The notes beneath the pieces were generated by a model. The model was given only the letters and a program-made list of their open reading frames with translations. It was not told the DNA's origin and ran no database searches. From Thermodesulfobacteriota bacterium (GTDB lineage: Bacteria; Desulfobacterota; Desulfobaccia; Desulfobaccales; 0-14-0-80-60-11): a stretch of 64,000 bases of DNA. Positions 49,985-62,621 of the stretch are shown here, in pieces. The stretch covers positions 128,141-192,140 of the forward strand of contig JBMORF010000082.1 in NCBI GenBank assembly GCA_049322315.1, in the 5' to 3' direction. The first letter of the stretch is position 1. Each line of letters opens with the position of its first letter. The translations under genes were made by a program, and so were the position numbers.

Positions 49985-50042
49985 GTAGGCGAACCTTGTG
50001 TTCGCCCCGGGGCCCAGGGCGAACACCAGGTTCGCCCCTACG
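49985..50042. repeat. REP-like hairpin doublet (GGCGAAC-N6-TTCGCC type)
   Basis: GTAGGCGAACcttgtgTTCGCCCC (49985..50008) and GGCGAACaccaggTTCGCCCCTAC (50018..50041). The same units occur at 58045..58062 and inside the RAYT ORF (58358..58509). A half-site lies at 25121..25131. Confidence 0.8.
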
Positions 50043-53392: not shown

Positions 53393-53590
53393 ATGGAAGA
53401 ATGTCCCCGGCAAGAAAAGAATTTAGCCTATTGCAACTGTAGCTATGGTTCCTGCGACAAAAAGGGGATCTGCTGCGAGTGCCTCCACTACCACCGGAAA
53501 ATGGGGGAACTGCCGGCGTGTTATTTTACCCCGGAGGTGGAACGGACTTATGATCGCAGTATTGCCCGCTTTATAAAATCATCCCGGTAG
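53393..53590 (+). CDS. Small Cys-rich protein (8 Cys; CNC..C..CCEC pattern), function unknown
   Basis: 65 aa: [45 protein letters not shown]... It looks like a conserved small metal-binding protein. It lies 16 nt upstream of livM. Confidence 0.6.
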
Positions 53591-54647: not shown

Positions 54648-55424
54648 ATGAACCACACCCTTCTGGAGATAACCAACCTCAGCAAACACTTCGGGGGCCT
54701 GCCGGCCCTGTCGGAGGTGAGTTTCCGGGCGGCCCGGGGCCAGGTCACGGCCCTCATCGGCCCCAACGGCGCCGGCAAAACCACCCTGCTCCATTGTCTT
54801 TCCGGGGTGATCAAGCCGGATGCCGGGGAGATCATCTTCGACGGCCGCGACCTCGCCGGCATGTCCGCCCACCGGGTGGCCCAGTTGGGGATTTCCCGCA
54901 CCTTCCAAAATCTCCGTCTCTTTCCCCGGCTGTCAGTCCTGGACAACGTCCTCTGCGGCCTCACCGTCCAGGCCGGGGATTCCCTGCTGGACGCCCTGCT
55001 CCGGTTGCCGGGCCTGCGCAACCGGGAACGGCGGCTGCGGCTTACAGCCCTGGAGACCCTGGACAGTTTCGGCCTGGCGGATAAGGCGGCCCTGCCCGCG
55101 GGCGTGCTGCCTTATGGAGACAAAAAAAGAGTGGAAATGGCCCGGGCCTTCGTCTCCCAGCCGGTTTTGACCTTACTGGATGAGCCGGTCGCCGGCCTCA
55201 ATCCCGAAGAGACCGCCCAGATTGCCGCACTAATTCGCCAAATGCGCGTCTACGGGAAGACCATGCTCCTGGTGGAGCACGACATGGAGATGGTTATGGG
55301 GGTGTCGGACCGGGTAGTGGTCCTGGATGGCGGCTGCCGCATCGCTGCGGGCAGCCCCGATGAGGTGCGGATCAATCCCCTGGTGCTGGAGGCCTACCTG
55401 GGCCGCATGAGCGCCACCGCTTGA
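54648..55424 (+). CDS. livG: ABC transporter ATP-binding protein (LivG-type)
   Basis: 258 aa. Walker A GPNGAGKTT, signature YGDKKRVEMARA, Walker B LLDEPVAGL. Confidence 0.9.
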   Translation: MNHTLLEITNLSKHFGGLPALSEVSFRAARGQVTALIGPNGAGKTTLLHCLSGVIKPDAGEIIFDGRDLAGMSAHRVAQLGISRTFQNLRLFPRLSVLDNVLCGLTVQAGDSLLDALLRLPGLRNRERRLRLTALETLDSFGLADKAALPAGVLPYGDKKRVEMARAFVSQPVLTLLDEPVAGLNPEETAQIAALIRQMRVYGKTMLLVEHDMEMVMGVSDRVVVLDGGCRIAAGSPDEVRINPLVLEAYLGRMSATA

Positions 55425-55471
55425 GATTACACTGGTTGCGAAAAGTTATTTCCGCCCCCCCCTCAACCTGG

Positions 55472-55515
55472 CCCTCTACCCCCACTGGGGGGAGAGGGGA
55501 TAAGGGGAAAGATTT
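55472..55515. repeat. G/C-tract hairpin element (family copy 3)
   Basis: CCCTCTACCCCC-actg-GGGGGGAGAGGG followed by GATAAGGGGAAAGATTTTT. It marks the left edge of the island between livG and livF. Confidence 0.5.
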
Positions 55516-55590
55516 TTGGCAATTGCTATAAATGGCAAGAGGGCCAAGACCCTAAAGTCCCAGCCCTCTTTCACCAAAATTTCGTCGTGC

Positions 55591-56040
55591 TTATTTCATG
55601 ACAATATTGAGGCCCTGGGCTCCCAGGCTCAACTGCACGCCCTTTTGGGTGGCTTTCAGGTTGATGACCGTACCCTTTTCGTTCCGCATCAACAGGCCGA
55701 TCTCGCCTTTGATCACGGCCACGCCGGCCTGGGCCGCCACGTAGTGGCCCGGAAAGTCGGCTATACTCTTCATGTTATAGACGTCGCCCTTGGCGCTGAT
55801 CTTGCTGATACCCACCGCGCCGGCGTCCAAACCCCGAACCTGGAAGGTATATTGCTTGTTCTGGAACTTTATAATACCGTCCCCCCAGGTAACACCCACG
55901 CCCGCGGCTATCTGGGTGCTCTCCAGGGTCAGTTCCCCCAGGGGATAAGGGGTCTGGGGTTGGGCCCCTACCGCGTATGCCAAGCCGAGAAGCATCGTCG
56001 CCGCCGCCAGAATGCAAAGAATCCTTTTCATACGCATCAT
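55591..56040 (-). CDS. Small secreted beta-rich protein of unknown function
   Basis: 149 aa with a signal peptide (MKRILCILAAATMLLGLAYAVGA). The rest is Gly/Val-rich with alternating polarity. No confident family assignment. Confidence 0.6.
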   Translation of the reverse strand: MMRMKRILCILAAATMLLGLAYAVGAQPQTPYPLGELTLESTQIAAGVGVTWGDGIIKFQNKQYTFQVRGLDAGAVGISKISAKGDVYNMKSIADFPGHYVAAQAGVAVIKGEIGLLMRNEKGTVINLKATQKGVQLSLGAQGLNIVMK

Positions 56041-56478
56041 TCAATCCTCTCTTAAAAAAATTTTTCACAAATTAAGACCGTCCAGCCAAAAGTCAACCAC
56101 TCGGTCTTATATCTTATTCTTTTCGGCTTTCCGGTCCAGGTCAATAAAAAAATGCTCCCGAATGACCACTTCCGTTTATAACCTTTTGGAGAAGCGGCGT
56201 CCCGAGACGTTCTTTCCCTAAAATATTCCGTCAGGTTAACGGCTCGTTGGTCCGGACCACCTGGCGCCTGTCGCTGCTGAAACCTTGGGGTCTGATGGTC
56301 AGTTGCACCCCCGGGCCAACGGCATCCCAAGTTACAATAACAATAATATCGTTTGCTGACATGTCAAGGGGGGCGCTACCTGGTTGAGTTTGGCGACAGC
56401 TGCTTCACCACCGGCAAACCCGGCCAGGGTCGAAGAGGTGATAGGTATTGCAGTGAGGCTAGCAGATAGAGGATACTT

Positions 56479-56712
56479 ATGAGAAATTATATTATCCCAA
56501 GGAGCCGCAAATTGGATATCGATCATTTAACCCTGGCTCAGATAGTGGCGGCAATCCAGCAGGCCGCCAAAAACTGCCAGTGCGAAGGAACCCGGGAAAC
56601 CATTTTCACTTCCCGGGGGCGGGACAACATCGTTCCTTGTCTCCAATGCGAACCCCTATATCAAGCCCTGGAGCACCTGGAAGCCGCGGCCGCGATTCTT
56701 AAGGGTATTTAA
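56479..56712 (+). CDS. Hypothetical 77-aa protein with CxC...CxxC
   Basis: Track ORF. Cys pairs are NCQCEG and PCLQCEP. It lies inside the accessory island. Coding status is not independently supported. Confidence 0.4.
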   Translation: MRNYIIPRSRKLDIDHLTLAQIVAAIQQAAKNCQCEGTRETIFTSRGRDNIVPCLQCEPLYQALEHLEAAAAILKGI

Positions 56713-56784
56713 GCCAAAAGCCGCACCCTTAAGAATAAAGCAGGCGCGCCGCCAAGGGAGATTTCTTTTTCCCCAGAGGAGGTC

Positions 56785-57117
56785 TTGATGGCTGCTGCAT
56801 TAACCATGGGTACCCGGATTTACCGGCCGGCCTCCCTGGCGGGCCGGGGGCAGGAGGTGCGTCTGGTGCTGGAAAACCCCGCCATGGAACACTTCGATGA
56901 GGGCACGGTCATGCTCCGGGCCGTGCCGGACGGGGCCGGGGCTGAACACTGGCGGGTCATCCCCTGGGAGGCAGGGGGTGGCCGGGTCCTGGTCTGCGAC
57001 GAACCCATCCCCGAGGACTGGACCTATTTCGAGGTCCTCTTTGCGGACGTCAACTTCGTGGCGGTCTCGCCGGTGGCGGGGGAGCTGGAGGAACTGAGAA
57101 AGCTCTACCGTCCGTGA
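56785..57117 (+). CDS. Hypothetical 110-aa protein
   Basis: Track ORF with normal-looking amino-acid composition, preceded by GAGGAGG. No family recognised. Confidence 0.45.
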   Translation: MMAAALTMGTRIYRPASLAGRGQEVRLVLENPAMEHFDEGTVMLRAVPDGAGAEHWRVIPWEAGGGRVLVCDEPIPEDWTYFEVLFADVNFVAVSPVAGELEELRKLYRP

Positions 57118-57230
57118 ATTTCGAAAGCCGGACCGCCCGGGCCCGACTCCTGTACTGCAGCAGGCCGATCCATTCGTTAACTTCCGGCTACAACTGATAA
57201 AAAATTAGCTCAGCAAGCGTTACCTGCCCC

Positions 57231-57443
57231 TCACCGGCTCACCGGCTCGTAATAGGCCACGCCATCCCCCCACCAGGTGAGTTTATAGCGCCTGCCCTTC
57301 ATATCGATATGGGGCCGCACCCAGAGAATGAGGCGTTCTATCAAACGGCCGTGCAAAGGATGGGAAAAAACCGCGGTCACCAACCGGGTGGGTTCGTCCA
57401 CCACGTCGGGAAAAGGATCAACATGTAATTCCGGCATAGCCAA
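57231..57443 (-). CDS. Hypothetical 70-aa protein
   Basis: Track ORF, MAMPELHVDPFPDVVDEPTRLV... No family recognised. Confidence 0.35.
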   Translation of the reverse strand: MAMPELHVDPFPDVVDEPTRLVTAVFSHPLHGRLIERLILWVRPHIDMKGRRYKLTWWGDGVAYYEPVSR

Positions 57444-57638
57444 ACTTCTCCTGTAAATCTTGCGCCTTGATTGCCACTTCTATTTTTATAATATAACCTT
57501 ACCAGCAAAATTTTGCCAAGCGGCAGGGGAGTGAGCCTGAGTTTCCAGGGGCCGGGAGGGATTCTCCTTGGATTTCGAAGGTTCCTGGACAAACAAAATA
57601 TTTTCCATTATTTATTTACATCATTTAGGATAGTCACC

Positions 57639-57875
57639 ATGGTGCGGATAGGGATTTACTTGACGGAAAAGCAGCAGGCCGCGCTCCGGGACCTGGCCCG
57701 GCAGACCGGCCAGACCCAGAGTAAATTGATCCGCCGGGCCATTGACGACTTCATTGATCGCCATAAGGCTCTGGACCGCCGGGCCATGTTGGAGCAGGCC
57801 TGGGGGATATGGAAAGATAGAGACGATCTGCCTGATTTTCGCGCCTTGCGCAAGGAATTTGACCGCTGGGCTTGA
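57639..57875 (+). CDS. vapB: Ribbon-helix-helix (CopG/VapB-type) antitoxin
   Basis: 78 aa from ATG 57639: MVRIGIYLTEKQQAALRDLARQTGQTQSKLIRRAIDDFI, an RHH fold pattern. It is followed 12 nt later by a PIN-like ORF. Confidence 0.75.
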   Translation: MVRIGIYLTEKQQAALRDLARQTGQTQSKLIRRAIDDFIDRHKALDRRAMLEQAWGIWKDRDDLPDFRALRKEFDRWA

Positions 57876-57887
57876 CGTCTTAGGGGT

Positions 57888-58103
57888 ATGATGGTCCCGT
57901 GGCTATTGGTGGATACAAGCGTGATAGTGGATTATCTTCGGAACCTTGATGAAAATGGGGCTTATCTAGAGGCGCAGGCTGAAGCCCTTCCTTTTCCACC
58001 ATCACCATGGCGAAACTCTATGCCGAGATGTGGGAGGAACGCTGGGCGAACACAAGGTTCGCAACGTTGGCAATGCGAATGGTTGATCCCTTATGATGAC
58101 TAA
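57888..58103 (+). pseudogene. vapC: Decayed PIN-domain (VapC-type) toxin gene: frameshifted and truncated
   Basis: The N-terminus LLVDTSVIVDYLR carries the first PIN acidic residue. The expected ..STITMAKLYAEM.. segment is only readable in another frame after about 57990. Similarity ends at the REP unit at 58045..58062. The ORF is 71 aa, whereas PIN toxins are usually about 130 aa. Confidence 0.65.
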
Positions 58104-58791
58104 ATTAGCTGAAAAGCGGCGGCGTTCCATCCGCATACAGGGATGGGATTATTCCCAGGACGGGGCTTATTTCGTTACGGTTTGCACCCATAATAAAGAA
58201 TACCTTTTCGGAGATATTGTCGGGGATTTAATGCATCTCAATGCCCCTGGAGAGATGGTTCTTCAGACCTGGGAGGAATTACCGGCGCGATTTCCGGCCA
58301 TGGAACTGGACGCCATGGTCCTCATGCCCAACCATTTCCATGCAATCGCAGTCATTCGTAGGGGCGAACCTTGTGTTCGCCCTGAGCGCCCCGAATCTGG
58401 TTTAAGCCCGGAACCTGGTGTTCGCCCCTCTTCCACGCCCCTCGAAGATATTAGGCATATTAACCTTGGCGATCACCCGGACCAGGGCGATCACAAGGAT
58501 CGCCCCTACAGGAAACGCCCACAAGGGACAGGGGCGGAATCAATTGGGCGCATCGTCCAGGCGTTTAAATCCCTAACTACCCACCGATATATTCAGGGCA
58601 TACGGAAATCCGGCTGGCCGCCATTTAAGGGAAAGTTATGGCAGCGCAACTATTTCGAACGGATCATCAGAGATGAGAATGAATGGGAGCGCATTTCCGA
58701 ATACATTGCAGCCAACCCTGTGAATTGGGCGTTGGATCGGGAGAACCGGGAGGCGGGGAAGGTTAGGGCGGGGGAACCGTGGCAGGTGTAG
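58093..58791 (+). CDS. REP-associated tyrosine transposase-like protein (IS200/IS605 Y1 HUH family, RAYT-type) with a REP-derived insert
   Basis: 232 aa. WDYSQDGAYFVTVCT, the HUH motif MPNHFHAI, and the catalytic Tyr region LWQRNYFERIIRDE. Residues about 88-148 are encoded by three REP-like units (58358..58509). Confidence 0.85.
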   Translation: MMTKLAEKRRRSIRIQGWDYSQDGAYFVTVCTHNKEYLFGDIVGDLMHLNAPGEMVLQTWEELPARFPAMELDAMVLMPNHFHAIAVIRRGEPCVRPERPESGLSPEPGVRPSSTPLEDIRHINLGDHPDQGDHKDRPYRKRPQGTGAESIGRIVQAFKSLTTHRYIQGIRKSGWPPFKGKLWQRNYFERIIRDENEWERISEYIAANPVNWALDRENREAGKVRAGEPWQV

Positions 58792-58846
58792 AAATGGTAG
58801 GGAAGCAGTACCCATTTTACGTCTGTTTACCATATAATTGAAGATT

Positions 58847-59434
58847 ATGGAAGATGATATTCGCATTTCCTGGGAAAGGTTTTTAAACCCTGATGTTTTG
58901 AGAACTAATTTAATAGTGGCTTCGCTATATATAACTGCATTTGAAATGCTAAAAGAAAGTATAATAGAACGACCAAAAGAATATTTCTCAGTAGGTTATG
59001 ATAAAAATGGTCTAATTGTTGATGAAAAATATAATATAAAAGTATTGAGTTTAAATAAAAGTCCGCTTTATGCATCTTTATCTTGGCTAAAAGATATGGA
59101 TGCAATAGATAGTAATGATATAGATATTTTTGATAAAATTATAAAATGCAGAAACGACATAACCCATGAAATTGTTAATTATATTTCAAAAGGAGTGAAG
59201 ACTGATCCACTTCCACTTTTTAATTCAACGATAGACCTATTGCACAAAATTGAAAAATGGTGGATTCTAAATATAGAGATAGCTATTAATCCGGAACTGA
59301 ATGAAAAAGAAGTTAAAGAGGATGAAATTGTTCCTGGTAAAATCATGATTCTGCGCTTGCTTTTGGATATAGCATTGGGGTCTGAAAAAGAATCAAGACT
59401 CTATTACAATGAGTTTATTAAAAAGCATGATTAA
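58847..59434 (+). CDS. AT-rich foreign ORF, all-alpha-looking, with a candidate HEPN RNase motif (RNDITH)
   Basis: 195 aa from ATG 58847. Hand counts of 17 and 22 G+C per 60 nt at 58921 and 58861, against 44 per 60 at 59521. The motif KCRNDITHEI fits the HEPN Rx4-6H pattern with Asn after Arg. Its 3' end overlaps the livF start by 26 nt. Confidence 0.55.
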   Translation: MEDDIRISWERFLNPDVLRTNLIVASLYITAFEMLKESIIERPKEYFSVGYDKNGLIVDEKYNIKVLSLNKSPLYASLSWLKDMDAIDSNDIDIFDKIIKCRNDITHEIVNYISKGVKTDPLPLFNSTIDLLHKIEKWWILNIEIAINPELNEKEVKEDEIVPGKIMILRLLLDIALGSEKESRLYYNEFIKKHD

Positions 59435-61538
59435 AGATAATATTGAAACCCTACTCCACATCTCCAACCTTACCGTCCATTATGGGGCGGCGCAGGCGTT
59501 GTTTGGGGTGTCGCTCTCCGTGGGCCGGGGGGAGACGGTGGCCCTGGTGGGGGCCAATGGGGCGGGGAAGACCAGTCTCTTGAAGGCGGTGATGGGGTTG
59601 GCGCCGCCTTCCGGGGGGCAGATTCTCCTGGAGGGGGAGGACGTCACCGGCTCTACCCCTGCGGCCATGGCGGCCCGGGGGGTGGCTTTGGTCCCCGAGG
59701 GGCGGGAGATGTTCGGAGACCTGACGGTCAAGGAGAATTTGGAGTTGGGGGTTCTGGCCCTGAATATTAGCCGGGGGGAAATGCAGAGCCGTCTGGAGGA
59801 GGTCTTCAGCCGCTTCCCCAAGCTGAAGGAGCGCAGCAAGCAACGCAGCAACACCCTGTCCGGCGGGGAGCAGCAGATGGTGGCCATGGGCCGGGCCTTG
59901 ATGGCTAAACCCCGGCTCCTGCTCCTGGATGAGCCCTCTTTGGGCCTGGCGCCCTTGATTACTGACGAAATCTTTGAGATTATCAAACAACTCACCCGGG
60001 CCGGGGTGACCATCCTCTTGGTGGAGCAAAACGCGGCCCGGGCCTTGACCGCGTCCAAATCCGCCTATTTGCTGGCCAACGGCAAGATCGTGGGCCAGGG
60101 CCGGAGCGACAAGCTCCTGCTGGACCCGGAACTGCGCCGGGCCTTTTTGGGCGCGGGCTCCGGCGACAACCCCGCGGCTTCCCGCCTGGGCGCAGCCGGA
60201 CTTACTAATATCAGACTGGAAAAACCGGATATGAGCAAACTGACTTTTATGCCTCCCTTTAAAACCAGGGAAGAACTTGAGGAACATCAGCTTCAACGCC
60301 TGAAGTGGAGCATACGCCACGCCTTCGAAGGCTCCAGCTTCTACCGGGCCCATCTGGAGGCTGCCGGCGTCACCCCCGGCGACATCCGCTCTCTGGACGA
60401 CCTGCAAAAACTTCCCCTGACCACCGCCGACGACCTCCGGGACGGCTATCCCTTCCCTTTCCGGGCCGTGCCCTTCGAGCAGATCGTGCGTATCCACGCC
60501 TCCTCCGGCACCACCGGCAAGCGCAAAATTCTGGGCTACACCCAAAAGGACCTGGACGACTGGGAGCATTTCTTCGCCCGGGCCTACGAGATGGCCGGGG
60601 TCACGCCTTTGGACCGGGTGCAAATCGCGGTGGGCTACGGGGTGTGGACCGCGGGCGCGGGCTTCCAGGCGGGGGTGGAAAAATTGGGAGCCCTGGCCGT
60701 ACCCGTGGGGCCGGGGAACGTGGACATGCACTGCGAGTTTCTGGTGGACCTGCAAAGCACGGTGCTCTGCTGCACCGCCTCCATGGGGTTGCTCATGGCC
60801 GAAGAGGTAAATAAGCGGGGCATCGCCGACAAGATCAACCTCCAAAAAGTCATCTACGGCTCGGAGCGCTCCAGCGTCTCCATGCGCCGTAAGATCTCGG
60901 AACTCCTGGGGGGCGTGGAACTCTTCGACATCCCCGGCATGACCGAACTCTACGGGCCGGGCACCGGCATCGAGTGCCCGGATCACGACTGCATCCACTA
61001 CTGGGCGGACTACTACCTCCTGGAAATCCTGGACCCGGAGACGTTGCAACCCCTGCCCGAGGGCGAATGGGGGGAGATGGTGGTGACCACCCTCACCAAG
61101 GAGGCCGCGCCCTTGCTCCGCTACCGCACCCGGGACATCACCCGCATCATCCCCGGGCCTTGCACCTGCGGGTCCATCCTTCCCCGGCATTCCCGCCTCC
61201 GGGGCCGCACCGACGATATGTTCAAGTTCCGGGCGGTGAACATCTACCCCTCCAGCATCGACAAGATTCTCTCGGAGGTGCCGGGCTTAGGCTCCGAATA
61301 CCAGATCCACCTGACCCGGGAGGCCGGGGGCCGGGACCACATGCTGCTGAAGGTGGAGCGGGGCGAAGGGGTGGAACCGGGCCGGGCCGATGAACTGGGC
61401 CGGGAGATCATTTACACGGTCAAACACAAACTTCTGGTCACCCCGGAGGTGGAGGTGGTGGAGTACGGCGCCCTGCCCCGGACGGACCGGAAGAGCAAGA
61501 GAGTTTTTGATACCAGGATAACTGATTCGGTAGTGTAA
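59409..61538 (+). CDS. In-frame fusion ORF: LivF-type ABC ATPase (aa 1-248), 26-aa linker, then phenylacetate-CoA ligase (PaaK, from Met275 at nt 60231)
   Basis: 709 aa with no stop between the modules. LivF part: GANGAGKTS, LSGGEQQMVAMGRAL, LLLDEPSLGLAP, ..RRAFLG. PaaK part: EEHQLQRLKWSIRHAF..FYRAHL, IHASSGTTGKRK, YGPGTGIEC. Confidence 0.8.
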   Translation: MSLLKSMIKDNIETLLHISNLTVHYGAAQALFGVSLSVGRGETVALVGANGAGKTSLLKAVMGLAPPSGGQILLEGEDVTGSTPAAMAARGVALVPEGREMFGDLTVKENLELGVLALNISRGEMQSRLEEVFSRFPKLKERSKQRSNTLSGGEQQMVAMGRALMAKPRLLLLDEPSLGLAPLITDEIFEIIKQLTRAGVTILLVEQNAARALTASKSAYLLANGKIVGQGRSDKLLLDPELRRAFLGAGSGDNPAASRLGAAGLTNIRLEKPDMSKLTFMPPFKTREELEEHQLQRLKWSIRHAFEGSSFYRAHLEAAGVTPGDIRSLDDLQKLPLTTADDLRDGYPFPFRAVPFEQIVRIHASSGTTGKRKILGYTQKDLDDWEHFFARAYEMAGVTPLDRVQIAVGYGVWTAGAGFQAGVEKLGALAVPVGPGNVDMHCEFLVDLQSTVLCCTASMGLLMAEEVNKRGIADKINLQKVIYGSERSSVSMRRKISELLGGVELFDIPGMTELYGPGTGIECPDHDCIHYWADYYLLEILDPETLQPLPEGEWGEMVVTTLTKEAAPLLRYRTRDITRIIPGPCTCGSILPRHSRLRGRTDDMFKFRAVNIYPSSIDKILSEVPGLGSEYQIHLTREAGGRDHMLLKVERGEGVEPGRADELGREIIYTVKHKLLVTPEVEVVEYGALPRTDRKSKRVFDTRITDSVV

Positions 61539-61714
61539 CTTTTCAAGGTTGCATGCGAAGAGTTTAACCAAAGGGACACAGGGGTCGAAGAAGATTTGAT
61601 CGGTCCACAAGCAGGATTATTCATCATGCCCATCTTTTTGTATCCTTTGTGTCTTTGTGGTAAAAGCATTATAGATAATGAATTCCTTACCAAATTTGGA
61701 GGCTTAGGACAAAA

Positions 61715-62056
61715 ATGACCGGTCCAAAGACGGTCGCGAGAGATGATGACCCGGTGCTGCATGAAATCCTGCGCCGCCTCGTGGAGACTTTTCAACCGGA
61801 TCGGGTTTATCTTTTCGGGTCCAAGGCCAGAAGTGAAGCAGGGCCGGACAGCGATTACGATCTGCTGATCGTGGTTCCGGATGAAGCTCCCCCGGAAAAG
61901 AAGCGGAGCCGTTTGGCCTATCAGGCCTTGCGGGGCACCCGGGCCGCAGCGGATGTTTTGGTATGGACCCGGGAGGCCTTTGACAGCCGCCTGCACCTTC
62001 CCGCTTCACTGCCCGCGACGATCACTAGAGAAGGAAAGCTTCTTTATGCCGCTTGA
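61715..62056 (+). CDS. Minimal nucleotidyltransferase (MNT-type antitoxin)
   Basis: 113 aa. VYLFGSKARSEAGPDSDYDLLIVV is the GSx10-DxD nucleotidyltransferase motif. It overlaps the HEPN gene by 11 nt. Confidence 0.85.
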   Translation: MTGPKTVARDDDPVLHEILRRLVETFQPDRVYLFGSKARSEAGPDSDYDLLIVVPDEAPPEKKRSRLAYQALRGTRAAADVLVWTREAFDSRLHLPASLPATITREGKLLYAA

Positions 62057-62459
62057 CCCGGTGTTAGTGGCAGAAACCAAGGCCTGGCTGCGGAAAGCGG
62101 CTTCCGATCTCAGGGCTGCTCAGCATGACCTGACCGCTTCTCCTCCGCTTCTGGATGATGCCACATTCCACTGCCAGCAGACCGTGGAAAAAATGTTTAA
62201 AGGCTTCCTCATGTGGCACGGTGTCCCTTTTCGCAAGACCCACAGCCTGGAGGAACTTGGCGAGCAATGCCTTGACCTGGACGCCTCGTTGAGAGATATG
62301 ATGGACAGGGCAGTTCCCTTAACTGAGTTCGCCTGGAAGTTTCGCTATCCCGGGGAGCCAGAGGAACCATCCATTCAAGAAGTACAAGAGGCATTGGAGA
62401 TCGCCCGGGAGGTTCATGGGGCAATTCTGGCAAGACTACCTCTGGAAGTTCAGACTTAG
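62046..62459 (+). CDS. HEPN-domain protein (toxin partner of MNT)
   Basis: Likely start ATG 62046 (MPLDPVLVAETKAWLRKAASDLRAA). The HEPN signature context is FRKTHSLEELGEQC. Track ORF 61881..62459 over-extends the 5' end. Confidence 0.85.
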   Translation: MPLDPVLVAETKAWLRKAASDLRAAQHDLTASPPLLDDATFHCQQTVEKMFKGFLMWHGVPFRKTHSLEELGEQCLDLDASLRDMMDRAVPLTEFAWKFRYPGEPEEPSIQEVQEALEIAREVHGAILARLPLEVQT

Positions 62460-62480: not shown

Positions 62481-62579
62481 CTGGTCGCCCTGGAGGTGGT
62501 GGAGTACGGCGCCCTGCCCCGGACGGACCGGAAGAGCAAACGGGTTTTTGATACCCGGATCACGGATTCCGTGGTATAA
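62481..62579 (+). pseudogene. paaK: Orphan 3' fragment of paaK (last 32 codons plus stop), displaced by the MNT-HEPN cassette
   Basis: It reads LVALEVVEYGALPRTDRKSKRVFDTRITDSVV*, nearly identical in protein to the end of the intact ORF (61434..61538). It has a 48-nt identical core. All 9 downstream nt differences are synonymous. Confidence 0.85.
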
Positions 62580-62621
62580 ATTATTAAAATTGGAGGCGGA
62601 CGCCTCTTAAGGGAGTTAACC

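Follow-up and report, generated by a model that had tools for sequence, protein, structure and literature searches.

A probable long-lived zone of gene accretion and decay between livG and livF in a Thermodesulfobacteriota bacterium

In 64,000 nucleotides (nt) of DNA from a Thermodesulfobacteriota bacterium (assembly GCA_049322315.1, contig JBMORF010000082.1), a stretch that as a whole we call the window, the ATP-binding cassette (ABC) transporter genes livG and livF lie about 4 kb apart, a separation borne out by the list of open reading frames (ORFs), by the DNA itself and by domain scans. An original prediction, made from the letters alone, had described the DNA between them as a mosaic accessory island whose small ORFs sat where novel defence or addiction modules might be expected. 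The reading that we consider probable is a different one: the spacer is a long-lived, clade-specific zone of accretion and decay inside an operon, completed at its right end by a recent cargo slot that adjoins a RAYT-type transposase gene. The locus is instructive, not extraordinary; most of it is a patchwork of small resident genes, old and conserved in the clade.

That the region is a mosaic was correct, and every feature of the earlier inventory was found at the position given for it (Table 1). The 'alternating composition' ascribed to it stands only in part. The G+C content (GC) does vary along the region, but most of it is host-like, sec149, orf110 and the RHH gene included; only the segment between 58.8 and 59.4 kb, where GC falls to 0.26-0.36, is strongly atypical and clearly foreign.

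The junction in related genomes

Comparison loci, numbered from L001, were collected by searching one genome per species with the LivF::PaaK protein and then by tblastn with the window proteins. Further loci came from a scan of metagenomes with the orf110-family alignment, and all window proteins were mapped onto the loci. In members of NC10/Methylomirabilia, Desulfuromonadales, Geobacteraceae and Desulfosarcina (L005, L006, L007, L010, L011 and L012) livG and livF abut, their tblastn matches being 2-24 nt apart. The two genes are indeed normally adjacent, as had been supposed, the empty junction that was to be sought in other genomes exists, and the region of the window is an insertion with respect to this ancestral arrangement.

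In closer relatives every junction is filled, with contents that differ from one genome to the next. In L003 and L020, 1.2-1.3 kb separate livG from livF and hold a YkgJ-type gene (CxxCxxCC) on the opposite strand. In L004 about 5 kb carry genes for TetR, an acyl-CoA dehydrogenase and EtfBA as well as a homologue of orf70; L158 reads livG-methyltransferase-DsrE-orf70(-)-livF::paaK, and the junction of L001 contains a PIN fragment, a RAYT gene and an AT-rich gene. The fullest order, which was assembled from overlapping pieces, is livG-AlkD-sec149(-)-bestrophin-like-memb167-orf110-[RHH-PIN]-DsrE-[memb139]-YkgJ(-)-livF::paaK. Its left half, as far as orf110, is complete in L110, L115 and L118, and lacks one member each in L106 and L124; its right half appears as orf110-DsrE-YkgJ(-)-livF-paaK in L138 and as orf110-RHH-PIN-DsrE-YkgJ in L128, L132, L133 and L139.

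The divergence of these genes scales with that of the flanks. The closest-related contig found, L091 (LivF 95.5 %, PaaK 96.6 % identity), has orf77-orf110-orf70(-)-RHH-RAYT in the order of the window, with 86 % identity for orf110 as against 96 % for LivF, while in L093 the figures are 71 % for orf110 and 81 % for LivG. Identity of livG is 79-82 % in L003, L020, L093 and L110-L124; a look-up of the exact LivG protein returned no record.

Small resident genes

The genes sec149, orf77, orf110 and orf70 are real, and so are the four small protein families that they stand for. Together with the RHH gene they display host-like codon scores and GC at third codon positions (GC3), the called frame scores best of the six, and the ratio of non-synonymous to synonymous substitution rates (dN/dS) is below 1 for all five, ranging overall from 0.05 to 0.67. 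Searches of the PDB with sequences and profiles gave nothing credible for sec149, orf77, orf70 or orf110.

The protein of orf110 (GC3 0.81, dN/dS 0.25-0.67) belongs to a conserved uncharacterised family with the motif GGRVCVCDEPIPEDWTYFEV..VNFVAVSPVAG, which comprises 17 cluster representatives in an exhaustive HMMER search and 56 metagenome loci in the scan with the family alignment; no relatives turned up among viral contigs. A tandem duplication of the gene is seen in L093 (5998-6318 and 6491-6811). Five representatives (P0124, P0126, P0128, P0130 and P0137) have apparent frameshifts, each at another position. We did not take this for programmed frameshifting, because the breaks vary and clustering at 50 % identity over-represents odd variants; errors of assembly are the probable source of these sequences, or else pseudogenes to which the clustering gives undue weight.

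The orf70 family numbers 364 homologues of about 68 amino acids (aa) in Desulfobaccales and their relatives, with no Pfam domain among the 120 listed; dN/dS is 0.05-0.37. In relatives the gene usually lies directly upstream of livF::paaK and divergent from it (L004, L031, L092, L158-160). Both orf110 and orf70 would encode small cytoplasmic proteins. As for orf77, its homologues are confined to a subclade and were met in five related loci (L091, with 79 % identity, L092, L093, L134 and L137). Its cysteines C33, C35, C54 and C57 are invariant, dN/dS is 0.16-0.32, and the protein is probably a zinc ribbon; it found no match in Pfam, PADLOC, the PDB or viral contigs. Since orf77 and orf110 share one frame with a single TAA between them, we also considered a readthrough or split gene, and discarded it: in L091 the offset is 295 nt and the frames differ.

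On the other strand, sec149 (GC3 0.75, codon score 0.44, pairwise dN/dS 0.25-0.59) begins with a hydrophobic leader, visible in the translation. Its homologues lie upstream of orf110 and divergent from it in 14 of the 15 loci that reach 2.6 kb or further beyond orf110 on that side. Four of nine family members match Pfam EipA, with a best E value of 9.3e-5; the window protein itself has no Pfam match. The gene is a resident of the clade block, its product being distantly and weakly EipA/DUF1134-like, secreted, and presumably periplasmic or associated with the envelope.

Traces of decay

The zone also holds remnants of genes. The 43-codon ORF that had been singled out as a further gene is a pseudogene fragment, with a marginal codon score in its region (0.07): in blastx against sec149-family proteins, 56264..56380 on the minus strand aligns with their last ~39 residues (46-54 % identity, E 3e-4), which makes it the relic of a second copy of the sec149 type.

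Next to it in kind is the toxin-antitoxin (TA) pair, correctly described beforehand as an RHH antitoxin with a frameshifted, truncated PIN toxin. The antitoxin gene vapB is intact according to Pfam and under purifying selection (dN/dS 0.19-0.32). In L107, L128, L132, L133 and L139 the RHH gene is followed by an intact PIN gene, that of L128 matching Pfam PIN with an E value of 5e-19. When the window is compared with the latter by blastx, codons 5-33 are found at 57903-57989, and a different frame holds codons 36-49 (57995-58036); the remainder is deleted, and homology stops at the REP-like palindrome (58044). The decay of vapC differs genome by genome. L001 has kept codons 71-126 only, L134 has a 5'-truncated remnant from about codon 49, in a contig that ends inside the gene, and L091 has kept no PIN sequence. 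In some relatives the RHH-PIN pair lies between orf110 and DsrE, and it is missing altogether in L101, L103, L109 and L138; this simple presence or absence fits independent insertion of a TA pair. We also considered orf77 as the antitoxin of the L134 PIN, a candidate that had to be rejected, since that PIN has lost its own 5' part and lies behind repeat hairpins as a remnant.

The RAYT gene and the cargo slot

The RAYT label was well chosen, for the protein has a Y1/HUH domain with HxH (NHFHAI) and Tyr (QRNYFERI) motifs, both seen in the translation, and the gene is flanked by REP-like palindromes. It matches Pfam Y1_Tnp at 23.7 bits (cut-off 23) and NCBIfam REP_Tyr_transpos with an E value of 8e-18 and 64.7 bits, below the 80-bit cut-off, in two stretches split by an insert. 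This in-frame insert (58358-58509) consists of two REP-like arms that separate the HUH motif from the Tyr motif; together the arms make up an inverted repeat of 27 nt (I2), 93 % complementary, and encode GEPCVRP and GDHKDRPY. It is kept in 4 of the 4 orthologues seen (also L001 926-944, L091 2137-2155 and L094 896-914). The palindrome GGGCGAACACAAGGTTCGCCC occurs at 58044, 58362 and 58485, and again in a doublet at 49987-50037; by chance no copy would be expected. The doublet, inverted and REPIN-like, comes just after livH and before iorA, and no further copy was found in the window except at or inside the RAYT gene. L001 and L091 also have the palindrome upstream of RAYT, and among the fetched loci it occurs exclusively in those with a RAYT gene. 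RAYTs are described as single-copy, mostly vertically inherited genes (PMC5581495; bioRxiv 10.1101/2022.05.22.493013) and are regarded as domesticated (PMC5581495). The presence of orthologues at the same locus in L091 (87 %), L001 (65 %) and L094 (64 %) is consistent with such inheritance.

Just past the RAYT stop, homology between the window, L001 and L091 ends in the alignments, to resume at about codon 10 of livF. What lies between is a gene of HEPN type in the window (GC 0.29) and in L001 (0.31), and in L091 a DUF4238 gene (0.315; Pfam DUF4238 1.8e-44, PADLOC DUF4238-Pers 1.9e-18), as against a GC of 0.63-0.65 for livF::paaK. The first ten codons or so of livF::paaK fall within the AT-rich inserted DNA, as an alignment of the start region with L001, L091, L092 and L031 makes visible. 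The HEPN-like gene is recent foreign cargo, and this right end, with RAYT and the HEPN-like gene, is the only part of the zone that looks recent. The end of the HEPN-like gene and the beginning of livF share 8 nt, stop and start codons included (ATGATTAA, 59427-59434), an overlap which leads us to think that livF::paaK is probably co-transcribed with the HEPN-like gene and translationally coupled to it.

The HEPN-like label itself also withstood scrutiny. The protein has 258 homologues of about 197 aa, 50-85 % identical across phyla, and an exact copy is on record in an NCBI metagenome-assembled genome labelled Thermodesulfobacteriota bacterium. In 27 sequences of the family R102, N103 and H107 are invariant (RNxxxH), in agreement with the Rx4-6H motif of the HEPN superfamily, and 23 of the 27 match Pfam DUF4145 below threshold, with a best E value of 3.6e-4; other sub-threshold matches are to RiboL-PSP, Apea and HepT-like, all HEPN families. 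The sole profile match of the window protein is to HEPN_Cthe2314, with an E value of 0.08. Its AlphaFold2 (AF2) model is mostly helical, with a mean predicted local distance difference test score (pLDDT) of 88.7. Family members have for neighbours a type III restriction-modification (R-M) system with ParD and MqsA, RadC and AbiJ/Abi_C, GmrSD with a transposase, and TerB/BrxC; viral contigs contain four relatives. In published work DUF4145 is treated as a divergent HEPN RNase (PMC3710099) and, in the single-gene defence protein RAZR, as the domain responsible for catalysis (PMC13017515). The likeliest role of the product is that of an RNase acting on its own, as a toxin or in abortive infection. 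The defence-type reading of the region survives for this AT-rich gene at the right end, and is lost for the remaining ORFs.

The history proposed

The comparisons show the following steps behind the present arrangement. From an ancestral state in which livG abutted livF::paaK, the junction opened in a Desulfobaccales-like lineage, as synteny shows, and gathered small genes unrelated to one another, amounting to ~7 kb at most: AlkD, the EipA-like sec149, a bestrophin-like gene, two for small membrane proteins, orf110, vapBC, DsrE and YkgJ, joined in some genomes by a methyltransferase gene or a TetR-ACAD-Etf set, each descendant retaining another subset. The genome of the window has retained sec149, orf110, orf70 and vapB, together with the subclade-specific orf77, and lost the others; of vapC and of another sec149 copy it has fragments only. 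RAYT with its REP-like hairpins adjoins the decayed vapC, at the same place as in three or four related contigs, and the interval from its stop to the livF start appears to serve as a single-gene slot that exchanges foreign genes of ~30 % GC. The present cargo of this slot would most likely act as a stand-alone RNase, in the manner of a toxin or of abortive infection, and is probably coupled to livF::paaK.

Several points weigh against parts of this account. The comparison loci are mostly short metagenome contigs, and 'clade-conserved' rests on sequence identity rather than on a species tree. Of the sec149-orf110 loci, 12 extend for another 1.8 kb or more on the upstream side, and 7 of these (L088 and L126, for example) have no livG there; this points to movement of all or part of the block or to a rearrangement of the operon, and some mobility of the block is conceivable. 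With regard to the individual proteins, the AF2 model of orf110, built from a 10-sequence alignment, has a pLDDT of 44 and is unusable, and the best PDB match to the HEPN-like model, Csm6, is not significant (E 0.6).

Alternative readings

A doubtful alternative holds that the EipA-like, periplasmic sec149 and orf110 are a functional divergent pair, an envelope module to which the intervening membrane proteins of relatives would belong. The constancy of the pair argues for it: the two genes stay on opposite strands, 253-2248 nt apart, in the 14 of 15 loci already mentioned, some of them without livG in reach; many loci have the bestrophin-like gene and memb167 in the interval, and in L097 memb167 directly adjoins orf110. 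Yet the loci come from one clade, in which linkage may be nothing but inherited synteny, spacing and intervening genes vary, and the match to EipA is a weak one that the window protein does not show. A broader proposal would combine two ideas, namely that the RAYT-livF site is a slot for the exchange of AT-rich, defence-type genes wired to livF::paaK, and that sec149 with orf110 is an unrecognised envelope module. Taken jointly this is speculative and rather unlikely; were the first of the two ideas true, a stand-alone HEPN family of more than 250 uncharacterised members would gain an unusual mode of expression and retention.

The original idea of a single, recently acquired mobile accessory island accounts for the emptiness of the site in distant relatives, for the TA, transposase-like and HEPN genes and for the variation in GC. 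We nevertheless find it improbable, and largely refuted already. Scans of all ORFs in 55425-59444 with Pfam and NCBIfam found no integrase or DDE transposase domain, the RAYT-type Y1 protein standing alone; no direct repeat pairs the two borders of the zone, nor are there long flanking direct repeats. Most genes have the codon usage of the host, and they recur at the junction piecemeal, with a divergence that follows the flanks, so that relatives hold overlapping subsets rather than a whole unit that is either present or absent. Conservation at this position together with host-like composition, which had been named as what would speak against an island, is found for sec149, orf110, orf70 and vapB, and thereby for the left two-thirds of the region.

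Very improbable, too, is the proposal that orf77, orf110 and orf70, whether or not joined by the RHH gene, make up a new toxin-antitoxin or anti-phage module. The idea was suggested by the position of these small, uncharacterised ORFs near TA, RAYT and HEPN genes. It could also draw on the Cys4 pattern of orf77, which resembles that of zinc-ribbon antitoxins, and on loci in which orf110 is directly followed by vapBC (L100, L107, L121, L128, L132, L133 and L139). But the three do not form a fixed unit: orf110 occurs mostly without orf77 or orf70, orf70 has its many homologues often elsewhere, and vapBC comes and goes independently of them. In PADLOC no family was matched at E <= 1 by sec149, orf43, orf77, orf110 or orf70, and viral contigs contain no relatives of orf110 or orf77. 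Moreover, the neighbours are of a housekeeping type (AlkD, bestrophin-like, DsrE, YkgJ). With their conservation at the junction, host-like codons and purifying selection, the small genes, sec149 included, look like ordinary lineage-specific proteins, foreign to any defence or addiction module.

Lastly, the notion that the small ORFs are chance, non-coding products of GC-rich DNA, which does yield many spurious ORFs, seemed at first to be favoured by a search in which orf77, orf110, orf70 and orf43, joined by Gly-Ser linkers, found nothing, but this was probably an artefact of Gly-rich linkers saturating the list of 8000 candidates, since three of the ORFs did yield homologues in subsequent searches, and with the conserved motifs, the dN/dS values and the best codon frames of sec149, orf77, orf110 and orf70 the notion is refuted for these four, has almost no chance of holding for the set as a whole, and is true, as had been foreseen for ORFs without conservation, of the 43-codon ORF only.

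Borders and neighbourhood

Table 1. Positions in the window of livG, livF::paaK and the features found between them.
Feature	Position	Strand	Remarks
livG	54648..55424	+	Left border; NCBIfam LivG 5e-78, 261.8 bits (below the model cut-off of 362 bits)
G/C-tract hairpin CCCTCTACCCCCACTGGGGGGAGAGGG	55472..55498	.	Between convergent livG and sec149
sec149	55591..56040	-	149-aa secreted beta-rich protein
AT-richer spacer	56041-56230		
43-codon ORF (orf43)	56231..56362	-	Overlaps the sec149-family relic 56264..56380 (-)
orf77	56479..56712	+	77 aa, CxC..CxxC
orf110	56785..57117	+	ATG at 56788, 109-aa protein; GGAGG 5 nt before ATG
orf70	57231..57443	-	ORF of 70 aa; gene 57231..57437, 68-aa protein
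RHH antitoxin gene, vapB type	57639..57875	+	Pfam RHH_3 6e-8, RHH_1 3e-7
vapC (PIN) remnant	57888..58040	+	
REP-like palindrome	58044..58064	+	5' flank of RAYT
RAYT-type Y1 transposase gene	58093..58791	+	
HEPN/DUF4145-like gene	58847..59434	+	Stand-alone, 195 aa, 29 % GC
livF::paaK fusion	59427..61538	+	Right border; Pfam ABC_tran 7.5e-32, AMP-binding, AMP-binding_C_2

At the left border, the G/C-tract hairpin between livG and sec149 exists as one copy only in the 64-kb window. Its stem is present in the fold of 55425-55595 (z = -1.96), and its position between convergent genes suggests that it is probably a bidirectional terminator. A scan for promoters and terminators returned counts that do not exceed those in shuffled sequence, and an Rfam scan of 55-60 kb gave no match. 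Short G/C-tract hairpins or tandem repeats are found in the spacer of relatives as well (L004 148-593, L134 1830-1925, L091 770-958); these repeats, like the hairpin of the window, are a source of spurious low-complexity ORFs.

At the right border livF is fused in frame to a gene for a phenylacetate-coenzyme A (CoA) ligase of the PaaK type. The fusion belongs to the cluster livH-iorA-iorB-livM-livG-livF::paaK and recurs in loci of Desulfobacterota, Geobacteraceae and NC10/Methylomirabilia (L001-L031); it points to a coupling between the uptake of aryl acids and their activation with CoA. Elsewhere in the same operon, a 65-aa Cys-rich DUF6485 ORF (53393..53590) lies between iorB and livM. L110 and L115 have it too (74-76 % identity), but in L003 and L020 it is missing and iorB directly adjoins livM; it marks another junction of this operon that gained a small gene. 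Downstream, a 108-nt direct repeat (61450-61557 and 62491-62598, 85 % identity), which is a duplicated 3' end of paaK, brackets an MNT (NTP_transf_2)/HEPN pair at 61715..62459. This insert is missing from L003, L020 and L009; it is a second small insertion, one that restores the gene end it interrupts.

Significance and comparison with known systems

The locus teaches that transporter genes which are normally fused or abutting can be split, and that the gap may then long serve as a permissive zone for landing and decay. It also cautions us that TA, transposase and HEPN neighbours alone do not make adjacent orphan ORFs candidates for defence. By its own merits, the tight and widespread stand-alone HEPN/DUF4145-like family, with its defence-type neighbourhoods, is a reasonable candidate for single-gene abortive infection.

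Compared with DUF4145-type HEPN RNases, as known from RAZR and from the survey of HEPN domains, this family shares the invariant R-N-x3-H, a mostly helical model, the sub-threshold DUF4145 and HEPN matches and a stand-alone gene set among R-M, Abi and TA genes, with a few prophage-like contigs. It differs in lacking any fused domain, zinc fingers included, as well as an MNT partner, in being a tight family of similar length and high identity across phyla, and in a fold similarity to solved HEPN structures that is short of significance. The RHH and PIN genes follow the type II VapBC plan, antitoxin gene directly before toxin gene, with an intact pair at the same position in relatives; the window departs from it in that codons 5-49 of the toxin alone are left, frameshifted, whereas the antitoxin survives by itself under purifying selection. 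As to EipA/DUF1134, sec149 would have in common with it a putative signal peptide followed by a Gly-rich, beta-type domain of ~125 aa, and departs from it in its lineage, which is that of Thermodesulfobacteriota, and in the missing Pfam match of the window protein.

The RAYT gene has much of a REPIN-RAYT system: a Y1/HUH protein, a REP-like palindrome in the 5' flank, a REPIN-like doublet elsewhere and a locus common to relatives. Unlike such systems it carries two REP-like arms in frame inside the ORF, in the window as in L001, L091 and L094, and with 64.7 bits it stays below the 80-bit cut-off of the NCBIfam model. Finally, the zone as a whole resembles the variable regions, or integration hotspots, that are flanked by core genes: livG and livF are conserved, the contents differ between related genomes and include decay products, and they are enriched for a TA pair, a transposase-like gene and single genes of defence type. 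It is set apart from them by its place inside an ABC-transporter gene pair that normally overlaps or abuts, by boundaries marked neither by an integrase nor by repeats, and by contents most of which are of long standing, resemble the host and were kept by vertical descent instead of arriving by recent transfer.

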